From assembly GCA_964016885.1 (NCBI GenBank), contig OZ024740.1:60202001-60266000 (forward strand): a stretch of DNA of 64,000 nt, written 5' to 3'. This DNA comes from Eledone cirrhosa. Taxonomy: Eukaryota. The position numbers and the translations under genes are program-made. Shown piece after piece: positions 1-46,984 of this stretch (position 1 is the stretch's first letter; each line of letters begins with the position of its first letter). Under the pieces are notes generated by a model that ran no database searches, was not told where the DNA came from, and was given only the letters and a program-made list of their open reading frames with translations.

Positions 1-1233
1 CTGACGAAGTGAGGTTGGTGGAGGCAAATCCTCTATAGCTTTAACTCTCTCAGGAATAGGTCGAATACCGTCAGCGTCAATGACGCGACCCAAAAAATTC
101 AAAGATTCGGAACCAAAAACACATTTTGACCGATTAATCCGAACATTGTAATTCTTTAAACGACAAAATAAAAGTTCCAGATGGCGCAAATGCTGCTCTG
201 GAGAAGAGCTCGCAACAAGAAGGTCATCAATGTAGGTGTATACAAAGTCGAGGCCGTGAGTGACCTCATCCATAAAACGCTGGAAGGTGCTAGCAGCATT
301 CCTTAACCCGAAAGGCATGGTAAGAAATTTGAAAGATCCAAATGGCGTAGTTATAGCCGTTTTCGGGATGTCGTCTCTGTTGACAGGAATTTGGTTATCG
401 CTCGTATCAAATCGAGTTTCGAAAAAATGTTGCAACCTTGCAACGAGGATGCAAAATCCTGCAGATGAAGGATAGGATACCGATCCGGTACGGTCATCGA
501 GGTCAATCTTCTATAATCTCCAATGGGTCTCCAATCTCCAGAAGATTTTGGCACCATATGTAATGGAGATGCCCACGGGCTCGTGGAAGGACGAATAATT
601 CCGAGCTGTAGCATATGATCGAACTCGGACCGTGCTGCTTTCAATTTGTCCGCTGGCAATCGACGAGGACGCGAAAAAACCGTAGCGCCAGTTGTAGTAA
701 TAAAATGCTCCGTAGCGTGGCCTGGATCAGTGACTCTAAAAATTTCATGAGTCAGTTGCGGGAACGATTTCAACAGTCCATGATATAAGTTACCAGAGTT
801 AGCAATAAAGAAAGTCGGGCTAATTGTAGAAAATTCCGTCGTCCTGCCACAAAGAAAAAACCCAGTAATATCGTCAATCAGGCGTTGGTGACGAACGTCC
901 CCCGTCAAAGAAAAATGGTGCAGGAAGTTCGCGCCCAAAATCGGGTATGGCAGATCAGCAACAGTGAACACCCATTTGAAATCCCGACGAAGATTTCGGA
1001 ACTTAAGAGATCTGTCCAAAAGTTCTGATTGTTGACTGGTTGACAGCTTGCAATTCGATCAACGACTCAGGAGGAGTTACTGTCATAGTATTAACAGGCC
1101 AAATACTGCATGAAGCTCCTGTGTCCACTAGGAAGGCTCTTCCAGACAGGAGGTCCTCAATGAAGAAATGGCGGTTCCGTTTTGTCTCGCAGAGTTCACT
1201 AGCCGCCTTTAGTGACTCTGGTCCACATTTCCC
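1..1233 (-). pseudogene. pol: Gypsy pol (aspartic protease + reverse transcriptase), frameshifted
   Basis: The -1 frame after G GGA AAT reads RHFFIEDLLSGRAFLVDTGASCSIWP. Frameshift near 1010, then ORF 351-1019 ([21 protein letters not shown]). Frameshift near 400, then TTPFG..MPFGLRNAASTFQRFM..YIDD (223-234). Confidence 0.92.
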
Positions 1234-1990
1234 GTGGCCGAATAATTACACGGAGGCTGGCAATGATCTGCCTTATCCGCATAGGTAGCATGATACCAGC
1301 ACAATGATGGGTTGCTGGCAGGCGAAGTAGTATGCCGACGTGGAATCGCGAAAGAACGCGAACGACTCCTAGGCCGCCGGGGATACGGCCTATTCTCCCT
1401 GCACAATCGAGCGACTTGCTGCGTCAAAGCGTCAATAATCTTCAATATGGCATCCTCGCGTGTCGAGACGGGCTGATTCAAATGAGAGGAAGCAATACGC
1501 GAGTCCGAGGCGGTAGCCTTTTTAGATAACTCCACGATTCGATCCGCGGAGGCAGCAATTTGCTCCAAAGAGCTGGTGTCCACTATATTTGCCAAAATAA
1601 TTTGGACGTTGTTTGGCAGGCGAGAGAAAAATAATTTTTTAATAAAGGAATTATCCTGTTCAGGCGATTCACTGAGGTCCCTAATGTGGCGCAAAAATTC
1701 AGACGGCGACCTGTCGCCCAGACACTCATCCTCCAACAATGAACGAAATCTGCTCTCAGCAGAACGACTGTTCCTTCGAAGAATTTCTTCCCGCAACGAG
1801 TCATAAGAAATACTGGCCAACGGGTTCGTAATCAAATCTTTCACTGTTATAGCGAGTGAAGAAGGAATACAACTTATCAAAAAGTTGAGCTTTTCTCGGT
1901 TTTTACTTCGTTGGCAGCAAAATAAGCGTCCAGCTGCGCAAACCAGAGCTTAGTATCACCTGAGAACGCAGGCAAACCAGGACCACTCAT
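1209..1990 (-). pseudogene. gag: Gypsy gag with one frameshift near 1880
   Basis: ATG at 1990 gives MSGPGLPAFSGDTKLWFAQLDAYF, then shifts into ORF 1209-1880 (LGDRSPSEFLR, RS-rich stretch, CWYHATYADKADHCQPPC). Confidence 0.88.
1227..1233 (-). promoter_or_regulatory. -1 ribosomal frameshift slippery heptamer (gag-pol)
   Basis: G GGA AAT in the gag frame just before the gag stop; the -1 frame runs open into the protease. Confidence 0.7.
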
Positions 1991-4170: not shown

Positions 4171-4497
4171 ATATATACAAATATCATTTCAGCGAGATCG
4201 CATTTCGGCGGTGACCAAAACAAAAGATAAAATGAAAACAGTGGTCATGAAGCCATCAGCCACCATAGCCGAGAAAACGAAACAAGCTAAACAGGTTAAC
4301 AAATATATATATATTTAATACAATAACAGAGATAGTTTAAAACTAAACTCTGACTGGTAACCATCTCACTCAACAAACATTAGGTTATATTTAAATATAA
4401 ACCCAATTTTAGTGTTTGGGGTGCTTACAATATGTATAATGTGGAAAAACCAGTTGTATTATTTTGTGAGATATAATTAAAGTTAAAGTATATCTCT

Positions 4498-4622
4498 TTC
4501 CAAACAATTGTTTCATTATAAGTTTTCTACAAGTTGGGAGAATGTTTCCAGTTTATGTAGAAGCCTAATATATATTCATGTAAGAATATATTTAGGTGGG
4601 CACTTATAAATCATCAGTGGAA
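4498..4622 (-). ncRNA. Type I hammerhead ribozyme, long loop II
   Basis: TTCCA CTGATGA T TTATAAGT [78 nt] ACTTATAA T GAAA CAATTG TT TGGAA. Confidence 0.75.
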
Positions 4623-5506
4623 TCCCGTTAAACTTTGATATAAGAAAATAATTTCTTACCGCTGTCAAAAATCGTGTCCGTAAAGTTACTCTCTCTCTCT
4701 CGCCTCGAATGACCGCCAAATTTGAAATTCCAGCAGTTTTGAGCTGAGGAAGTATCATAGCGACACGAAGCGGGAAGGGGAGACAACCCACGATCCACGA
4801 AATGAGGAAAAAAAAATAATATACACGCGGGTTAATTAGTTTTTTTGAAAACATTATCAATCCAACGTGTTTAAGAACTCAATTGAAAATTAAAAAAAAT
4901 AAATATATGCTTGTATAAATTACACACGCATATAGATATTTTCTTAGGCTAAATCAGAAGTTGTACCCGAATAAGAACCGCTTCTCATAACTGCAGTAAA
5001 TGCAGAAAGTTATGCTATAAAGGGCAAATGGGAATATAATTCTCCGGCCGAATTAAGAGTAAAATATAAAACACACGCGGGTTAATTAGTTATTTCAAAA
5101 CCAATATTAATTCCTCGTGTAAAGAACTCAATTAATAAAAGAAAATAAATAAATATATGCATGTAATTATATACGTAGGCATATATTTATATTTTCTTAG
5201 GCTAAAAAACAGAGAAGTTACAACCAAAAAAAGCCACAATATTTCACAACAGTAATAAATACGGAAAGTCAAATTCATAAGGTACCTGGAAATAAACACC
5301 GCTGGCCAATCAAGAGTAAATATTTAATACAATAACAGAGATAGTTTAAAACTAAACTCTGACTGGTAACCATCTCACTCAACAAACATTAGGTTATATT
5401 TAAATATAAACCCAATTTTAGTGTTTGGGGTGCTAACAATATGTATAATGTGGAAAAACCAGTTGTATTATTTTGTGAGATATAATTAAAGTTAAAGTAT
5501 ATCTCT

Positions 5507-5631
5507 TTCCAAACAATTGTTTCATTATAAGTTTTCTACAAGTTGGGAGAATGTTTCCAGTTTATGTAGAAGCCTAATATATATTCATGTAAGAATATAT
5601 TTAGGTGGGTACTTATAAATCATCAGTGGAA
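5507..5631 (-). ncRNA. Type I hammerhead ribozyme, second copy
   Basis: Same motif as 4498-4622, 1009 bp away. Confidence 0.75.
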
Positions 5632-5918
5632 TCCCGTTAAACTTTGATATAAGAAAATAATTTCTTACCGCTGTCAAAAATCGTGTCCGTAAAGTTACTC
5701 TCTCTCGCCTCGAATGACCGCCAAATTTGAAATTCCAGCAGTTTTTGGCTGAGGAAGTATCATAGCGACACGAAGCGGGAAGGGGAGACAACCCACGATC
5801 CACGAAATGAGGAAAAAAAATAATATACACGCGGGTTAATTAGTTTTTTTGAAAACATTATCAATCCAACGTATATATATATATAAACAGGTTAACAAAT
5901 ATATATATATATAGATAT

Positions 5919-6270: not shown

Positions 6271-6286
6271 TATATATATATATATA

Positions 6287-6601
6287 TCAGAAAGGGTGTG
6301 GTAAAATACCAGGTGGACCATAACTCACCAGAGTACTTGATACTTGGGGTAGTAGAGTGGGTAATATGAAAAAGTTCATGGGTCCTGAATCTTTTCATAT
6401 ATATATATATAACAAAGGAATTGTGGTAAGGAACCAGATGGACCATAACGCACCAGAGTACTCAATACTTAGGGTAGTAGAGTGGGAAATAGGAAAAAGT
6501 ATGACCCCGACGGCAGAGCTCAAGCCGTTTCGACGGCTATTTCCAGAAATAGCCGTCGAAACGGCTTGAGCTCTGCCGTCGGGGGTCATACTTTTTCCTA
6601 T
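6287..6601 (+). repeat. Two tandem copies of a short element, each ending in a fold-back hairpin
   Basis: gtggtaa..ccag.tggaccataac.caccagagtact..gggtagtagagtggg twice; hairpin 6366-6400; palindrome arms 6489-6543/6546-6601. Confidence 0.75.
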
Positions 6602-6949
6602 ATATATATATAGAGAGAGAGCAAGTTAATACGAAGCATTGTGAGATATGAAATAAACGACTGATAAGTTTCAGAAAGACAGTACAATGTGGTAGAAATA
6701 TCAAAGTAATGTTTTGCCCAGTATATTTTAACATGATATTTCAGGGCTATAATGATCGCTCGACATGCTAGAAATAGGAGCTAAATCTCCTTCATATAAA
6801 ACGGACACGTTGGACAATATAGTCCCAGAAAACTATTATTCAACAAATGCGATATAGAATGAAAAGCGACGTAAATAAAATAAAATGGGAATATTTCAAA
6901 CTTTAGTTAACATACATATGTTCGATGGCGTACTGCTTAGTTTTTGTTG

Positions 6950-35599: not shown

Positions 35600-36385
35600 A
35601 GAAATAACAACACAATCGGTACAGTATATGGAAGGGATATATTAGGTTAACGTTTGATATAGCAGGAAGAGGGTCTTAACGTTTCGGACGCTAGTCCTTC
35701 ATCAGAAGAAAGAATGAGAAATAAGATAGATTGAGGGGACGGGCGGGATGGAATTGGAAAAAATGTCTTTAGATAAAAATAACAGGTCCATTCATGTTGA
35801 CATCTCTTCCAAAACTGTTGGTGCTGGCATTTTGTGTATGATTTATTTTTTAGAAAAGTGGATGATGGAGGGCGTCTACCTGAAATGGAAAACAAAACCG
35901 TTTTGTAAAAAGAGCGAAGGGAATGGGTTACGAAATCGTCGTCCTGAAGACGGAGGAATTGGGAATAGGGTATGGAGTGTTTGGTGTGGGTTGGATGGGA
36001 GGAGGTGAAGTCGAGGTAAGTTTGGGAGTATGTTGGTTTAATGAAGATGGAAGTAGAGAGGGTGTGGTGAGAGTGATTAATAGATAGAGAGATATCTAGA
36101 AAAGCGACAGAAGAATCGAAGACGGAGGCGGTGAAATTGAGAGCAGGATGGAAAGATTGGACAAAAAAAAGAAAGCAGTCGAGCTGTTCTCGTGATAGAG
36201 AGGTGGCGCCGATACAGTCGTCGATATAACGACCGTATAGCTCAGGAGTCGGTCCAGCGTACTGGGAGAAGATCTGGGCTTCGACGTATGGCATAGTTTG
36301 GACCTATACTGGTTCCCATCGCTAATCTGAGACCTGCTGATAAAATTCCCCCGAAAAAGAAAATCTATTGAGGGTGATGATTTCT
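35600..36385 (-). pseudogene. Penelope-like element: RT fragment joined to a pLTR-like end
   Basis: YQQVS..AMGTSIGPNYA, YGRYIDDCIG, FHPALNFT, VAFLDI, IKPTYSQTYLDFTSSHP..SIPYSQFLRL, then deletion and hammerhead. Confidence 0.88.
35674..35709 (-). ncRNA. Minimal Penelope-type hammerhead
   Basis: TCTT CTGATGA A GGAC TAGC GTCC GAAA CG TT AAGA; palindromic AACGTT. Confidence 0.75.
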
Positions 36386-39229: not shown

Positions 39230-39628
39230 TGTGTGTGTGTGTATACAGTTACAATGTATATAAAGGTCTCTCCTGTCGATAACGACATACTGAATTAGTT
39301 TGCGATGTGGCTGAGTATTCCACCTTTAGCGTAATTGTCCAGTGGAATCAGTGTAACAAAGGTTGCGGCTTTGAATTAAGGGTCCAATTTCACTCTAATG
39401 GCTTATGTTGACACTTGCTCAAAGTGTCACTTAGTGATCGCCAACCCGGAGCCTCATGAATGTTAATCGAACGCCTTAATCCGTGTGTGCATGTGTGCGT
39501 GTATGCGTGTGTGCTTGACTGCATGAGTGTGCGCGTATGCGCGCGTGTGTGTGTGTGTGTTGCCAGCGGTTAAGTAAAAGGCTAAAGGGAAATATGGAAA
39601 CACAGTAAAAGATTAGTTTGTGAAATGA

Positions 39629-39828
39629 NNNNNNNNNNNNNNNNNNNNNNNNNNNNNNNNNNNNNNNNNNNNNNNNNNNNNNNNNNNNNNNNNNNNNNNN
39701 NNNNNNNNNNNNNNNNNNNNNNNNNNNNNNNNNNNNNNNNNNNNNNNNNNNNNNNNNNNNNNNNNNNNNNNNNNNNNNNNNNNNNNNNNNNNNNNNNNNN
39801 NNNNNNNNNNNNNNNNNNNNNNNNNNNN
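39629..39828. other. Assembly gap (200 N)
   Basis: Run of N. Confidence 1.
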
Positions 39829-39945
<117 letters not shown>

Positions 39946-40055
39946 TATATAGTATAAATATATATATATATAATATATGTATATATATATATATATATGT
40001 ATATATTATACATATATATATATATATGTATATATATATGTATATATATAGTATA

Positions 40056-40087
<32 letters not shown>

Positions 40088-40088
40088 C

Positions 40089-40137
<49 letters not shown>

Positions 40138-40219
40138 CATATATATACATATATATATACATGTATATATATATTATATATACATATATATATATATATA
40201 TATACATATTATATACATG

Positions 40220-40295
<76 letters not shown>

Positions 40296-40299
40296 CATG

Positions 40300-40497
<198 letters not shown>

Positions 40498-40498
40498 C

Positions 40499-40545
<47 letters not shown>

Positions 40546-40548
40546 CAT

Positions 40549-40762
<214 letters not shown>

Positions 40763-40774
40763 CATATATATATA

Positions 40775-40813
<39 letters not shown>

Positions 40814-40817
40814 TTAC

Positions 40818-40940
<123 letters not shown>

Positions 40941-40950
40941 TATATAATAT

Positions 40951-41030
<80 letters not shown>

Positions 41031-41066
41031 TATATACATATATATATACATATATATATATATATG

Positions 41067-41117
<51 letters not shown>

Positions 41118-41311
41118 TTATACATATATATATATATATATATATAATATAATATATATATATATATACATTATATATATATAATATACATATTATATAT
41201 ATATACATATATATATATGTAATATATATTATGTATATATATATACTATATATATATATATATTATATATATATATATATACATATATTATATACATATA
41301 TATATATGTAT

Positions 41312-41391
<80 letters not shown>

Positions 41392-41669
41392 CATATATAT
41401 ACATATACATATATATATATATATACATATGAGTGGTTAGAGAATTGGATTCGCAATCGTAAGGTTGTGAGTTCGATTCCTGGACCAGGCGATGCGTTAT
41501 GTCCTTGGGCAAGACACTTTATTTCACGTTTGCTCCTTCTACCTGGAGTTGCGACCGATAGATAGTATTAGCAATTGGAAAGACCAACGGAAACATTGTT
41601 CCCTCGGTCCGATTTGACGAAAGTCGATCGTCTTATATATATATATACATATATATATATACATATATA

Positions 41670-41700
<31 letters not shown>

Positions 41701-41730
41701 ACATATACATATATATACATATATATATAC

Positions 41731-41821
<91 letters not shown>

Positions 41822-41863
41822 CATATATATATACACATATATTATATACATATATATATACAC

Positions 41864-41894
<31 letters not shown>

Positions 41895-41995
41895 CACATA
41901 TATATACACATATATATACATATATATATATACATATATATATACATATATATAATATATATACATTATATATATACATATATATATATATATAC

Positions 41996-42026
<31 letters not shown>

Positions 42027-42197
42027 CATATATATACATATATATATACATAGGGTTATAGACGGCGAGTCTACGATTTCCCGCCTTCACTATACACCAA
42101 TGTATTTACGGGTCACTTTCACGACCTTTTAGACCTGTATTAGTTGGAGTGAGGTCATATATTTTGTCGTTCCTGGGGTTTTAACCTAGGACAGGAA

Positions 42198-42284
42198 AAT
42201 GCTTCTCTGATGATCGTTGCTTTTCCATTAATATCCATGTGATATTTAATGTTTTGCACGTGAAACTGTACAGTTAAGGCCATT
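42198..42284 (+). ncRNA. Hammerhead, extended loop II
   Basis: AATGCTTCT CTGATGA T CGTTGC [hairpin loop] GCACG T GAAA CTGTACAG TT AAGGCCATT. Confidence 0.62.
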
Positions 42285-42396
42285 AGAATAGGTAAATATT
42301 TATATTATATTTTTTAATTTTGATTAATTTTGATTGTATATTAATTTTGATTTATTTGAAAAATTGAATGAATTTTTGCTTGTTCTGCTTATCTTG

Positions 42397-42447
<51 letters not shown>

Positions 42448-42730
42448 CATATATACATATATATACATATATATACATATATATACATATATATATACAT
42501 ATATATACATATATATATACATATATATACATATATATATACATATATATATACATATATATACATATATATATACATATATATACATATATATATACAT
42601 ATATATACATATATATACATATATATATACATATATATATACATATATATACATATATATATACATATATATATACATATATATACATATATATATACAT
42701 ATATATACATATATATATACATATATATAC

Positions 42731-42781
<51 letters not shown>

Positions 42782-42794
42782 CATATATATATAC

Positions 42795-42827
<33 letters not shown>

Positions 42828-43702
42828 CATAATATATATATATATATACATATATATATACATATATATATACATATATATATATATATTATACATATAT
42901 ATATATATATACATATATATATACATATATATATACATATATATACATATATATATATATACATATATATACATATATATATATACATATATATACATAT
43001 ATATATATACATATAAATACATATATATATATACATATATATACATATATATATATACATATAAATACATATATATATACATATACATATATATATACAT
43101 ATATATATACATATATATATACATATATATACATATATATATACATATATATACATATATATATACATATATATATACATATACATATATATATATATAC
43201 ATATATATACATATATATATACTTATATATACATATATATATACATATATATACATATATATATATACATATATATACATATATATATACATATATATAC
43301 ATATATATATACATATATATAAATATATATATACATATATATACATATATATATACATATATATACATATATATATACATATATATACATATATATATAC
43401 ATATATATAAATATATATATACATATATATATACATATACATACATATATATATACATATATATACATACATATATATACATATATATATACATATACAT
43501 ACATATATATATACATATACATACATATATATATACATATATATACATATATATATACATATATATACATATATATACATATATATATACATATATATAT
43601 ACATATATATACATATATATACATATATATATACATATATATACATATATATATATACATATATATACATATATATATACATATATATACACATATATAT
43701 AC

Positions 43703-43739
<37 letters not shown>

Positions 43740-43798
43740 CATATATATATACATATATATACACATATATATACACATATATATACACATATATATAC

Positions 43799-43835
<37 letters not shown>

Positions 43836-43845
43836 CATATATATT

Positions 43846-43883
<38 letters not shown>

Positions 43884-43888
43884 TATAC

Positions 43889-43923
<35 letters not shown>

Positions 43924-43962
43924 CATATATATATACATATATATATATATATACATATATAC

Positions 43963-43993
<31 letters not shown>

Positions 43994-44174
43994 CATATAT
44001 ACATATATATATATACATATATATATATATACATATATATATAGATATATATATATATATATACATATATATATACATATATATATACATATATATATAC
44101 ATATCTATATACATATATATATACATATATATATACATATATATATACATATATATATATACATATATATATAC

Positions 44175-44221
<47 letters not shown>

Positions 44222-44226
44222 TATAC

Positions 44227-44257
<31 letters not shown>

Positions 44258-44308
44258 CATATATATACATATATATATACATATATATATATATATACAT
44301 ATATATAC

Positions 44309-44339
<31 letters not shown>

Positions 44340-44571
44340 CATATATATATACATATAAATATAGATATATATATATATATACATATATATACATATATAT
44401 ATACATATATACATATATAATATACATATAAATATAGATATATATATATATATATACATATATATATACATATATATATACATATATATATACATATATA
44501 TATACATATATATATACATATATATATACATATATATATACATATATATATACATATACATATATATATAC

Positions 44572-44624
<53 letters not shown>

Positions 44625-44625
44625 C

Positions 44626-44672
<47 letters not shown>

Positions 44673-44774
44673 CATATATATATACATACATATATATATA
44701 TATATATATACGTATATATATACATACATATATATATACATACATATAATATATATATATATATACGTATATAT

Positions 44775-44881
<107 letters not shown>

Positions 44882-44950
44882 CATATATATATATATATAT
44901 ATACATACATATATATATATATATATATACATACATATATATATATATAT

Positions 44951-44993
<43 letters not shown>

Positions 44994-45073
44994 CATATAT
45001 ATATATATATACATATATATACATTTATATAACATATATATATATATATATACATACATATATATATATATAT

Positions 45074-45154
<81 letters not shown>

Positions 45155-45155
45155 C

Positions 45156-45186
<31 letters not shown>

Positions 45187-45349
45187 CATACATATATATA
45201 TATATACATATATATATAGATATATATATATATATATACATATATATATACATATATATATACATATATATATACATATCTATATACATATATATATACA
45301 TATATATATACATATATATATACATATATATATATACATATATATATAC

Positions 45350-45393
<44 letters not shown>

Positions 45394-45442
45394 TATATAT
45401 ACATATATATATACATATATATATATATATACATATATATAC

Positions 45443-45473
<31 letters not shown>

Positions 45474-45775
45474 CATATATATACATATATATATACATAT
45501 ATATATATATACATATATATATACATATAAATATAGATATATTATATATATATACATATATATACATATATATATACATATATACATATATATATACTTA
45601 TATATATACATATATACATATATATATACATATAAATATAGATATATATATATATATATACATATATATATACATATATATATACATATATATATACATA
45701 TATATATACATATATATATACATATATATATACATATATATATACATATATATATACATATACATATATATATAC

Positions 45776-45826
<51 letters not shown>

Positions 45827-45938
45827 CATATATATATACATATATATATATATAAAATACATATATATATATATACATATATATATACATACATATATAT
45901 ATATATATATATACGTATATATATACATACATATATAT

Positions 45939-45971
<33 letters not shown>

Positions 45972-45985
45972 CGTATATATATACA

Positions 45986-46092
<107 letters not shown>

Positions 46093-46161
46093 CATATATA
46101 TATATATATATATACATACATATATATATATATATATACATACATATATATATATATATAT

Positions 46162-46194
<33 letters not shown>

Positions 46195-46215
46195 CATACA
46201 TATATATATATATAT

Positions 46216-46289
<74 letters not shown>

Positions 46290-46435
46290 TATATATATAT
46301 ATACATATATATACATATATATATACATATGTATATATATATATACATACATATATATATATATATATATACATACATATATATATATATATATACATAC
46401 ATATATATACTATATATATATATATATATACATAC

Positions 46436-46466
<31 letters not shown>

Positions 46467-46489
46467 CATACATATATATATATACATAC

Positions 46490-46522
<33 letters not shown>

Positions 46523-46545
46523 CATATATATACATATATATATAC

Positions 46546-46598
<53 letters not shown>

Positions 46599-46631
46599 CA
46601 TATATAAACATATATATATACATATATATAC

Positions 46632-46906
<275 letters not shown>

Positions 46907-46907
46907 C

Positions 46908-46940
<33 letters not shown>

Positions 46941-46941
46941 C

Positions 46942-46980
<39 letters not shown>

Positions 46981-46984
46981 CAGT

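Follow-up and report, generated by a model that had tools for sequence, protein, structure and literature searches.

The insertion at positions 4311 to 5872 of a 64,000-nucleotide stretch of the Eledone cirrhosa genome (the window) raises the question of how a non-coding element with a ribozyme motif in each repeat came to be copied into DNA at more than unit length. The element comprises 1.55 units of a 1009-nt repeat, read from the minus strand. A sequence-only reading had described near-identical repeats 1009 bp apart, each with a minus-strand hammerhead, no recognisable open reading frame and direct repeats of about 26 bp on both flanks. All of this is confirmed. Positions 4311-4868 (repeat copy 1, minus strand, the 3' copy in the RNA sense) differ from 5317/5320-5872 by 4 substitutions, one indel of 4 nt and one of 1 nt, and the period of 1009 becomes 1005/1004 past the indels. 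Repeat copy 2 (5317..5872, minus strand) belongs to the upstream unit, which is truncated 5' at monomer position 644, the 5' end of the window copy. The longest stop-to-stop frame at the locus is 100 aa, with none longer between the repeats, and the longest ATG frame of the circularised unit is 92 aa.

Monomer position 1 is numbered here as window 5511 and position 1009 as window 4503. The window copy spans both cut sites and thus holds one complete cut-to-cut monomer (4503..5511, minus strand, 1009 nt, non-coding, 31% GC), which recurs as an exact block at L229, L257 and L264. A 3' tail of about 190 nt (4311..4502, minus strand) runs from the cut site to the 3' end that is fixed family-wide, its final 3 nt overlapping the (TA)n target. 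The left target-site duplication (4288..4313, plus strand, 26 bp) ends in (TA)n and is likely the primer end for target-primed reverse transcription. The right duplication (5884..5909, plus strand, 26 bp) follows an 11-nt (TA)n spacer, (TA)5A, at the 5' junction (5873..5883, plus strand). The unit also contains an internal duplication that had been missed in the sequence-only reading, consisting of two diverged sub-repeats of about 250 nt with 72% identity (4809-5058 and 5059-5316, minus strand).

Each hammerhead consists of a 5-bp helix I, CUGAUGA, a 96-nt insert and GAAA-CAAUUG-UU. In hammerhead 1 (type I, 4498..4622, minus strand) helix I pairs 4622-4618 with 4502-4498, CUGAUGA is at 4617-4611 and GAAA at 4514-4511, with a GUU cut after 4503. 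Hammerhead 2 (5507..5631, minus strand) has the same fold, with CUGAUGA at 5626-5620. The predicted cuts leave 5' ends at 4502 and 5511. The two have in common a variant confined to the window locus. The 96-nt insert is a branched helix II, also overlooked earlier, in which a 7-bp stem opens into two hairpins as a long three-way junction; its basal pair is U.U in the window element and G-C or A-U in relatives. Among the 46 matches returned by Rfam at E<=1 there is no hammerhead. The motif is nonetheless real, though atypical. Both sides have changed in 8 of 32 pairs across 12 subfamily representatives, a count reached by none of 500 shuffles and compared with 1-3 in slid controls; these figures are not probabilities, the 12 representatives being related. 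Across the same representatives 92.4% of cells pair, and the thirteen core positions have a mean conservation of 99.5% against 96.4% unit-wide. The cut base in relatives is U, A or C and never G. The helix III loop varies (AAUU, GAUC, GGCC, and GACGUC inside a longer loop in a sister family) and is palindromic throughout these changes, which favours the earlier suggestion that two ribozymes could pair as a dimer through CAATTG. Dimeric cleavage via a palindromic helix III is itself already described (PMC6765202).

The minimum-energy prediction for the hammerhead domain is an alternative fold (-28.3 against -25.8 kcal/mol for the active fold), and the combination of a GUU cut with a U.U base suggests a slow ribozyme. 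Active hammerheads with U.U at the base of helix II are on record (PMC3088659; PMC7229834). One published core search, as set out in PMC8557442, admitted only a 7-17 nt spacer; a 96-nt helix II falls outside this range and is missed by Rfam, so similar families have possibly been overlooked. Folding z-scores (-8.9 for the circular unit and -7.0 for the sister unit) were dropped as evidence in view of -7.5 for the antisense and -13.5 for one control stretch out of three. A plus-strand CUGAGGA at 4744/5749 lacked plausible helices by eye and was rejected as a hammerhead. The idea of a nested hammerhead remnant within helix II was also abandoned, as the sister family has a covarying hairpin there.

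The element belongs to a large family. A 24-mer from the tail has 3,818 exact matches in the 3.0-Gb assembly, subfamilies included, and a mid-unit 20-mer has 227. The 1009-nt unit and its head-to-tail junction are present in two contig runs of unspecified type. The 3' end lies at monomer positions 190-196, on an AU-rich patch, in 29 of 30 loci (two of them this window) and in 30 of 30 loci of another set, with (TA)n immediately after it in 78 of 90. The 5' ends vary and continue into the preceding unit with no defined start, giving arrays of up to 4.6 units (L209). The expectation that other copies would be freely permuted multimers is therefore not borne out: the 3' end is fixed about 190 nt past the cut and only the 5' ends vary. 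This end pattern is, as read from the copies, target-primed and Penelope-like rather than a random permutation. Nor are the copies the pLTRs of a coding element, the outcome that had been named as fatal to the circular-RNA proposal, since none of about 180 aligned loci is an ordinary pLTR flanking an open reading frame. A plausible non-TA target duplication is seen in at most 4 of 90 loci, and the 26-bp case of the window is rare in this respect.

Older subfamilies have spacings of 712-768 and approximately 990-1030 nt. They retain the hammerhead fold, as does a sister retrozyme family (L112-L140, for example C1:169338437-169341633) with a 707-nt unit, a GUC cut site and a longer helix III. 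The sister family has 1,085 first-look candidates and a fixed 3' end like that of the window family. A coding element (L105) was considered as its parent and ruled out, the two being adjacent insertions.

The ends of genomic copies give evidence of cleavage in vivo. Among passages of the cut site in which the copy reaches position 18, 22 of 57 end at monomer positions 1-18, where 2.1 are expected (P 2e-15), and 35 read through. The next-best 18-nt interval scores 0.14, against 0.48 at the cut. Half of the piled-up ends (11 of 22) start at positions 1-9, ahead of an ATAT microhomology. This count is based on the first 100 of the 227 mid-unit 20-mer places, with arrays merged (n=89) and without a segmental duplicate (L035), a complex locus (L222) and a locus lacking a main hit (L247); the ends of L229 and L187 were placed by eye. 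On the first passage the stop falls at the cut in 10 of 68 copies; for the young subfamily the figure is 8 of 33, with 1.5 expected. These counts come from a sample classed by eye that comprises 77 terminal tails in 94 rows from the first 100 of the 3,818 tail matches. Some copies are exact to the base: L264, L372 and the sister-family locus L128 begin at position 1, and L229 folds back on itself exactly there.

Further evidence comes from fusions to a coding element. Coding Penelope-like elements are numerous in this genome, some Neptune-type (Cys-rich linker and C-terminal GIY-YIG) and some Hydra-type, the latter called from the CxCX5C linker and DKT motif that PMC8557442 describes; both calls are by motif and not from a tree. 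Their hammerheads resemble those of the window family in having a U.U helix II base, an NUU cut and a palindromic helix III, and in one Hydra-type family (L142-L171, 52,243 first-look candidates, two alternative 3' ends in (TA)n) helix III is identical (GAAA-CAAUUG-UU). Searching for the hammerhead of the window family with a base other than T after it gave 15 matches, made up of 10 point variants, 1 deletion (L261, which lacks the first approximately 9 nt exactly from the cut) and 4 matches to chimeras. The four correspond to three loci (L229, L257/L417 and L264), in each of which monomer positions 1-1009 are joined to a Neptune-type fragment that starts at the Neptune cut. The partner has a reverse transcriptase, Cys-rich linker, C-terminal GIY-YIG and 3' hammerhead, with its own GAAA-GUAC-UU cut; its assignment to Neptune rather than Nematis is a reading of motifs and not of a tree.

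All three monomers were copied jointly with a Neptune-type tail. L257/L417 carries the monomer within the hammerhead cut of a full-length RT and GIY-YIG element of about 4 kb, with no duplication, and the joint is repeated in the inverted 5' piece, so the fusion predates integration. The joint at L229 is likewise repeated in an inverted 5' piece. The monomers differ from one another at 34, 81 and 86 sites and none is as close to the other two as to ordinary copies; the three loci are independent. These chimeras are three loci in the assembly sequence of one genome. Another pattern search yielded none beyond them (0 in 47 of 47 matches), and among 76 of the 178 Neptune-cut matches there was none other than L257. 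No fusion of retrozyme to Hydra-type element, in that direction, was found among the 15 matches.

Taken with the pile-up, the exact cut-to-cut monomers at these three loci uphold the predicted cleavage at 4502/5511 that would free a monomer of about 1009 nt. From the positions of ends and joints it is likely that cutting and re-joining of the family's RNAs took place in living cells and preceded their copying into DNA. In 21 of 85 multi-repeat loci a variant is common to the repeats and absent from the other sampled loci (29 variants among 181 loci, with about 0.4 expected by chance). A 25-mer specific to the window has two matches in the whole assembly, both at the window locus, and a further search pattern matched that locus alone because it contained the private variant. 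The repeats within such a locus are of one lineage, and this pattern suggests that one template was copied twice, but gene conversion could also produce shared private variants, as could a donor that the assembly lacks.

The explanation that best accounts for the whole is a non-LTR retrozyme whose RNA was cut in vivo, re-joined and copied by a borrowed Penelope-like reverse transcriptase-endonuclease, and on the genomic evidence it is quite probably correct. In outline, a tandem element would be transcribed and cleaved incompletely, probably as a dimer through the helix III palindrome. An RtcB-type ligase would probably join the resulting 5'-OH and cyclic-phosphate ends, yielding circles or multimers; in the account of PMC7229834, axolotl monomers were circularised in vitro by RtcB. 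Priming would use the internal AU-rich patch 190 nt past the cut, at a (TA)n target that has been nicked, and the borrowed enzyme would likely copy the RNA into such targets for one or more laps, the window copy representing 1.55 of them. Copying of circles beyond unit length has been proposed for Penelope-like elements (PMC4209133). A circle would be the likeliest template, being somewhat favoured over the others together. The circular template put forward in the sequence-only reading is thus favoured: the private variants common to repeats within a locus agree with it, and ligated or uncleaved linear multimers or jumps across a nick may account for them as well. RNA ends open to ligation in trans would be expected to circularise too. 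Stops at the cut on the second pass (39%) are not explained by a sealed monomer circle alone, and hence a linear fraction would be needed.

It is possible, if unlikely, that nothing was ligated and that the reverse transcriptase jumped from end to end across the cuts, the template being a linear monomer (a circle nicked at the cut and held by helix I) or another cut RNA. A success rate of approximately 60-75% per jump would then be required. Stop rates in the young subfamily are comparable on first and second passage (8/33 and 22/57, Fisher p 0.25), which speaks for jumping, as do the deletion at L261 (1 of 15 matches) and small indels at the Neptune cut in some of the 76 examples examined (of 178 matches, with no control site). 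Almost every internal junction is, however, base-exact: none of 72 junction reads has an indel at the cut. The four chimeric joints are likewise exact, in contrast to free 5' ends, which are mostly short by 5-17 nt; exact joints favour ligation over polymerase jumps. A circle-free route in which multimers were copied from the partly cleaved linear read-through of tandem donors, as in partial-tandem pLTRs, is less probable again. Arrays of up to 4.6 units are available as donors, the hammerhead looks weak, and the combination of 5' truncation and a constant 3' end is given as standard in PMC8557442. Such a route leaves unexplained the cut-to-cut fusions with a different element, and the shared variant of the window has no donor in the assembly.

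Very improbable is an inactive hammerhead, with the polymerase stalling at helix I or joining at ATAT and the chimeras arising by template switches between look-alike motifs. Most of the piled-up ends do lie 5-17 nt inside the cut, close to the ATAT patch, and there is a 2-nt TT microhomology at the chimeric joints. Against this, there is no pile-up at stronger predicted helices or at other AT patches, and the joints retain both GTT copies in register with both cuts although 5 nt of TTGTT homology were on offer. The copies that begin or fold back at position 1, together with the conservation of the core above that of the unit, also tell against inactivity. The wider proposal that retrozyme and autonomous Penelope-like RNAs are both cut by their hammerheads and ligated in the germline, and that the mixed circles are copied whole by the Penelope reverse transcriptase, has about an even chance of being right. 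If it is, the genome is a fossil record of Penelope hammerheads cutting in vivo, Penelope-like elements replicate via re-ligated (circular) RNA, and any RNA with 5'-OH and cyclic-phosphate ends could be spliced into the cut and carried along.

On the features that can be tested in sequence, the window family is a non-LTR retrozyme. As in the metazoan non-LTR retrozymes described in PMC7229834 and 10.64898/2026.07.22.740005, it has non-coding head-to-tail repeats, each unit with a single type I hammerhead, a GC content under 50% and no LTR organisation, together with a weak palindromic helix III, co-occurrence with Penelope-like elements and a long target duplication where one is visible (26 bp in the window, against the more than 4 bp expected of retrozymes). 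The U.U at the base of helix II is shared with HHR_Amex2 of the axolotl as reported there. The unit of 700-1030 nt is at the top of the size range; animal retrozyme units are given as 51-972 bp in a survey of 35 genomes (Li et al. 2026, 10.64898/2026.07.22.740005) and as 150 to >1000 nt by Cervera & de la Pena (2020, PMC7229834). Published units thus reach approximately 1 kb, and the length of the window unit, which had been thought to exceed that of typical animal retrozymes, is not new in itself. What differs from these retrozymes is the branched helix II of 96 nt and the genomic fusion to a coding element at both cut sites. Instead of forming long arrays, the copies are dispersed and 5'-truncated, their 3' end being fixed in (TA)n, and the circles here are predicted.

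The family also resembles the hammerhead-bearing pLTRs of Penelope-like elements (Cervera & de la Pena 2014, PMC4209133; Craig et al. 2021, PMC8557442), where partial tandems, 5' truncation and (TA)n targeting are likewise described and sequence past the 3' end reappears upstream. The fixed 3' end, 5' truncation and microsatellite target are all found here, but the repeats enclose no RT and GIY-YIG reading frame such as an autonomous pLTR would have, and the tail has no homology to the coding families examined. Inverted 5'-truncated pieces are rare in the window family (2 of 90 copies), against 13 of 30 loci for Neptune-type elements and 10 of 30 for Hydra-type ones. A partner search by DNA similarity found no homologous tail in the GIY-YIG loci covered, 50 of the 150 listed. 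The non-autonomous Chlamys elements (MRC1; PMC8557442) are also non-coding, pLTR-forming and multicopy in head-to-tail order. In that description they depend on a Penelope-like partner, resemble its 3' end and mostly lack hammerheads; the window family differs in that its hammerhead is conserved and 3' homology to a partner was not found. No account of the window family, the branched helix II, the pile-up at the cut or the cut-to-cut chimeras was found in literature searches limited to openly accessible articles, and the supplements of PMC7229834 and 10.64898/2026.07.22.740005 may list related families.

The value of these observations is that copy ends mark the cut and that, in three insertions, the joints between a retrozyme monomer and a Penelope-like element coincide exactly with the ribozyme sites of both. 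Such a genomic record of cutting and re-joining in vivo would make the role of the Penelope hammerheads directly testable, and the pile-up and chimera tests can be applied to any assembled animal genome.

Other elements were seen in passing. Several copies of Neptune-type elements (L302-L331 and L436-L479) have small deletions or insertions that start exactly at the hammerhead cut, a pattern noted with no control site. In the Neptune-type families L061, L062, L067 and L091 no CUGANGA core was seen in the first kilobase or so past the reading frame, among the output listed. A second abundant non-coding family that inserts into (TA)n is present in the window at 25809-25828 (minus strand) and 27010-27029 (plus strand) and elsewhere at L090, L053, L058 and others. 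Its 3' end is like that of the window family, it has inverted 5' pieces, and a hammerhead-like motif a short way upstream has CAGAAGA in place of CUGANGA. The window also contains what we take to be fragments of the gag and protease/RT of an LTR retrotransposon (351-1949, minus strand) and, presumably, a fragment of a Penelope-like reverse transcriptase (35647-36303, minus strand). A degenerate (TA)n satellite of about 14 kb with an N gap occupies approximately 39500-54000. The dispersed repeat at 6272-6620, a common one that also lies near many other loci, contains a 125-bp tandem and, at 6505-6584, a perfect hairpin of 39 bp.
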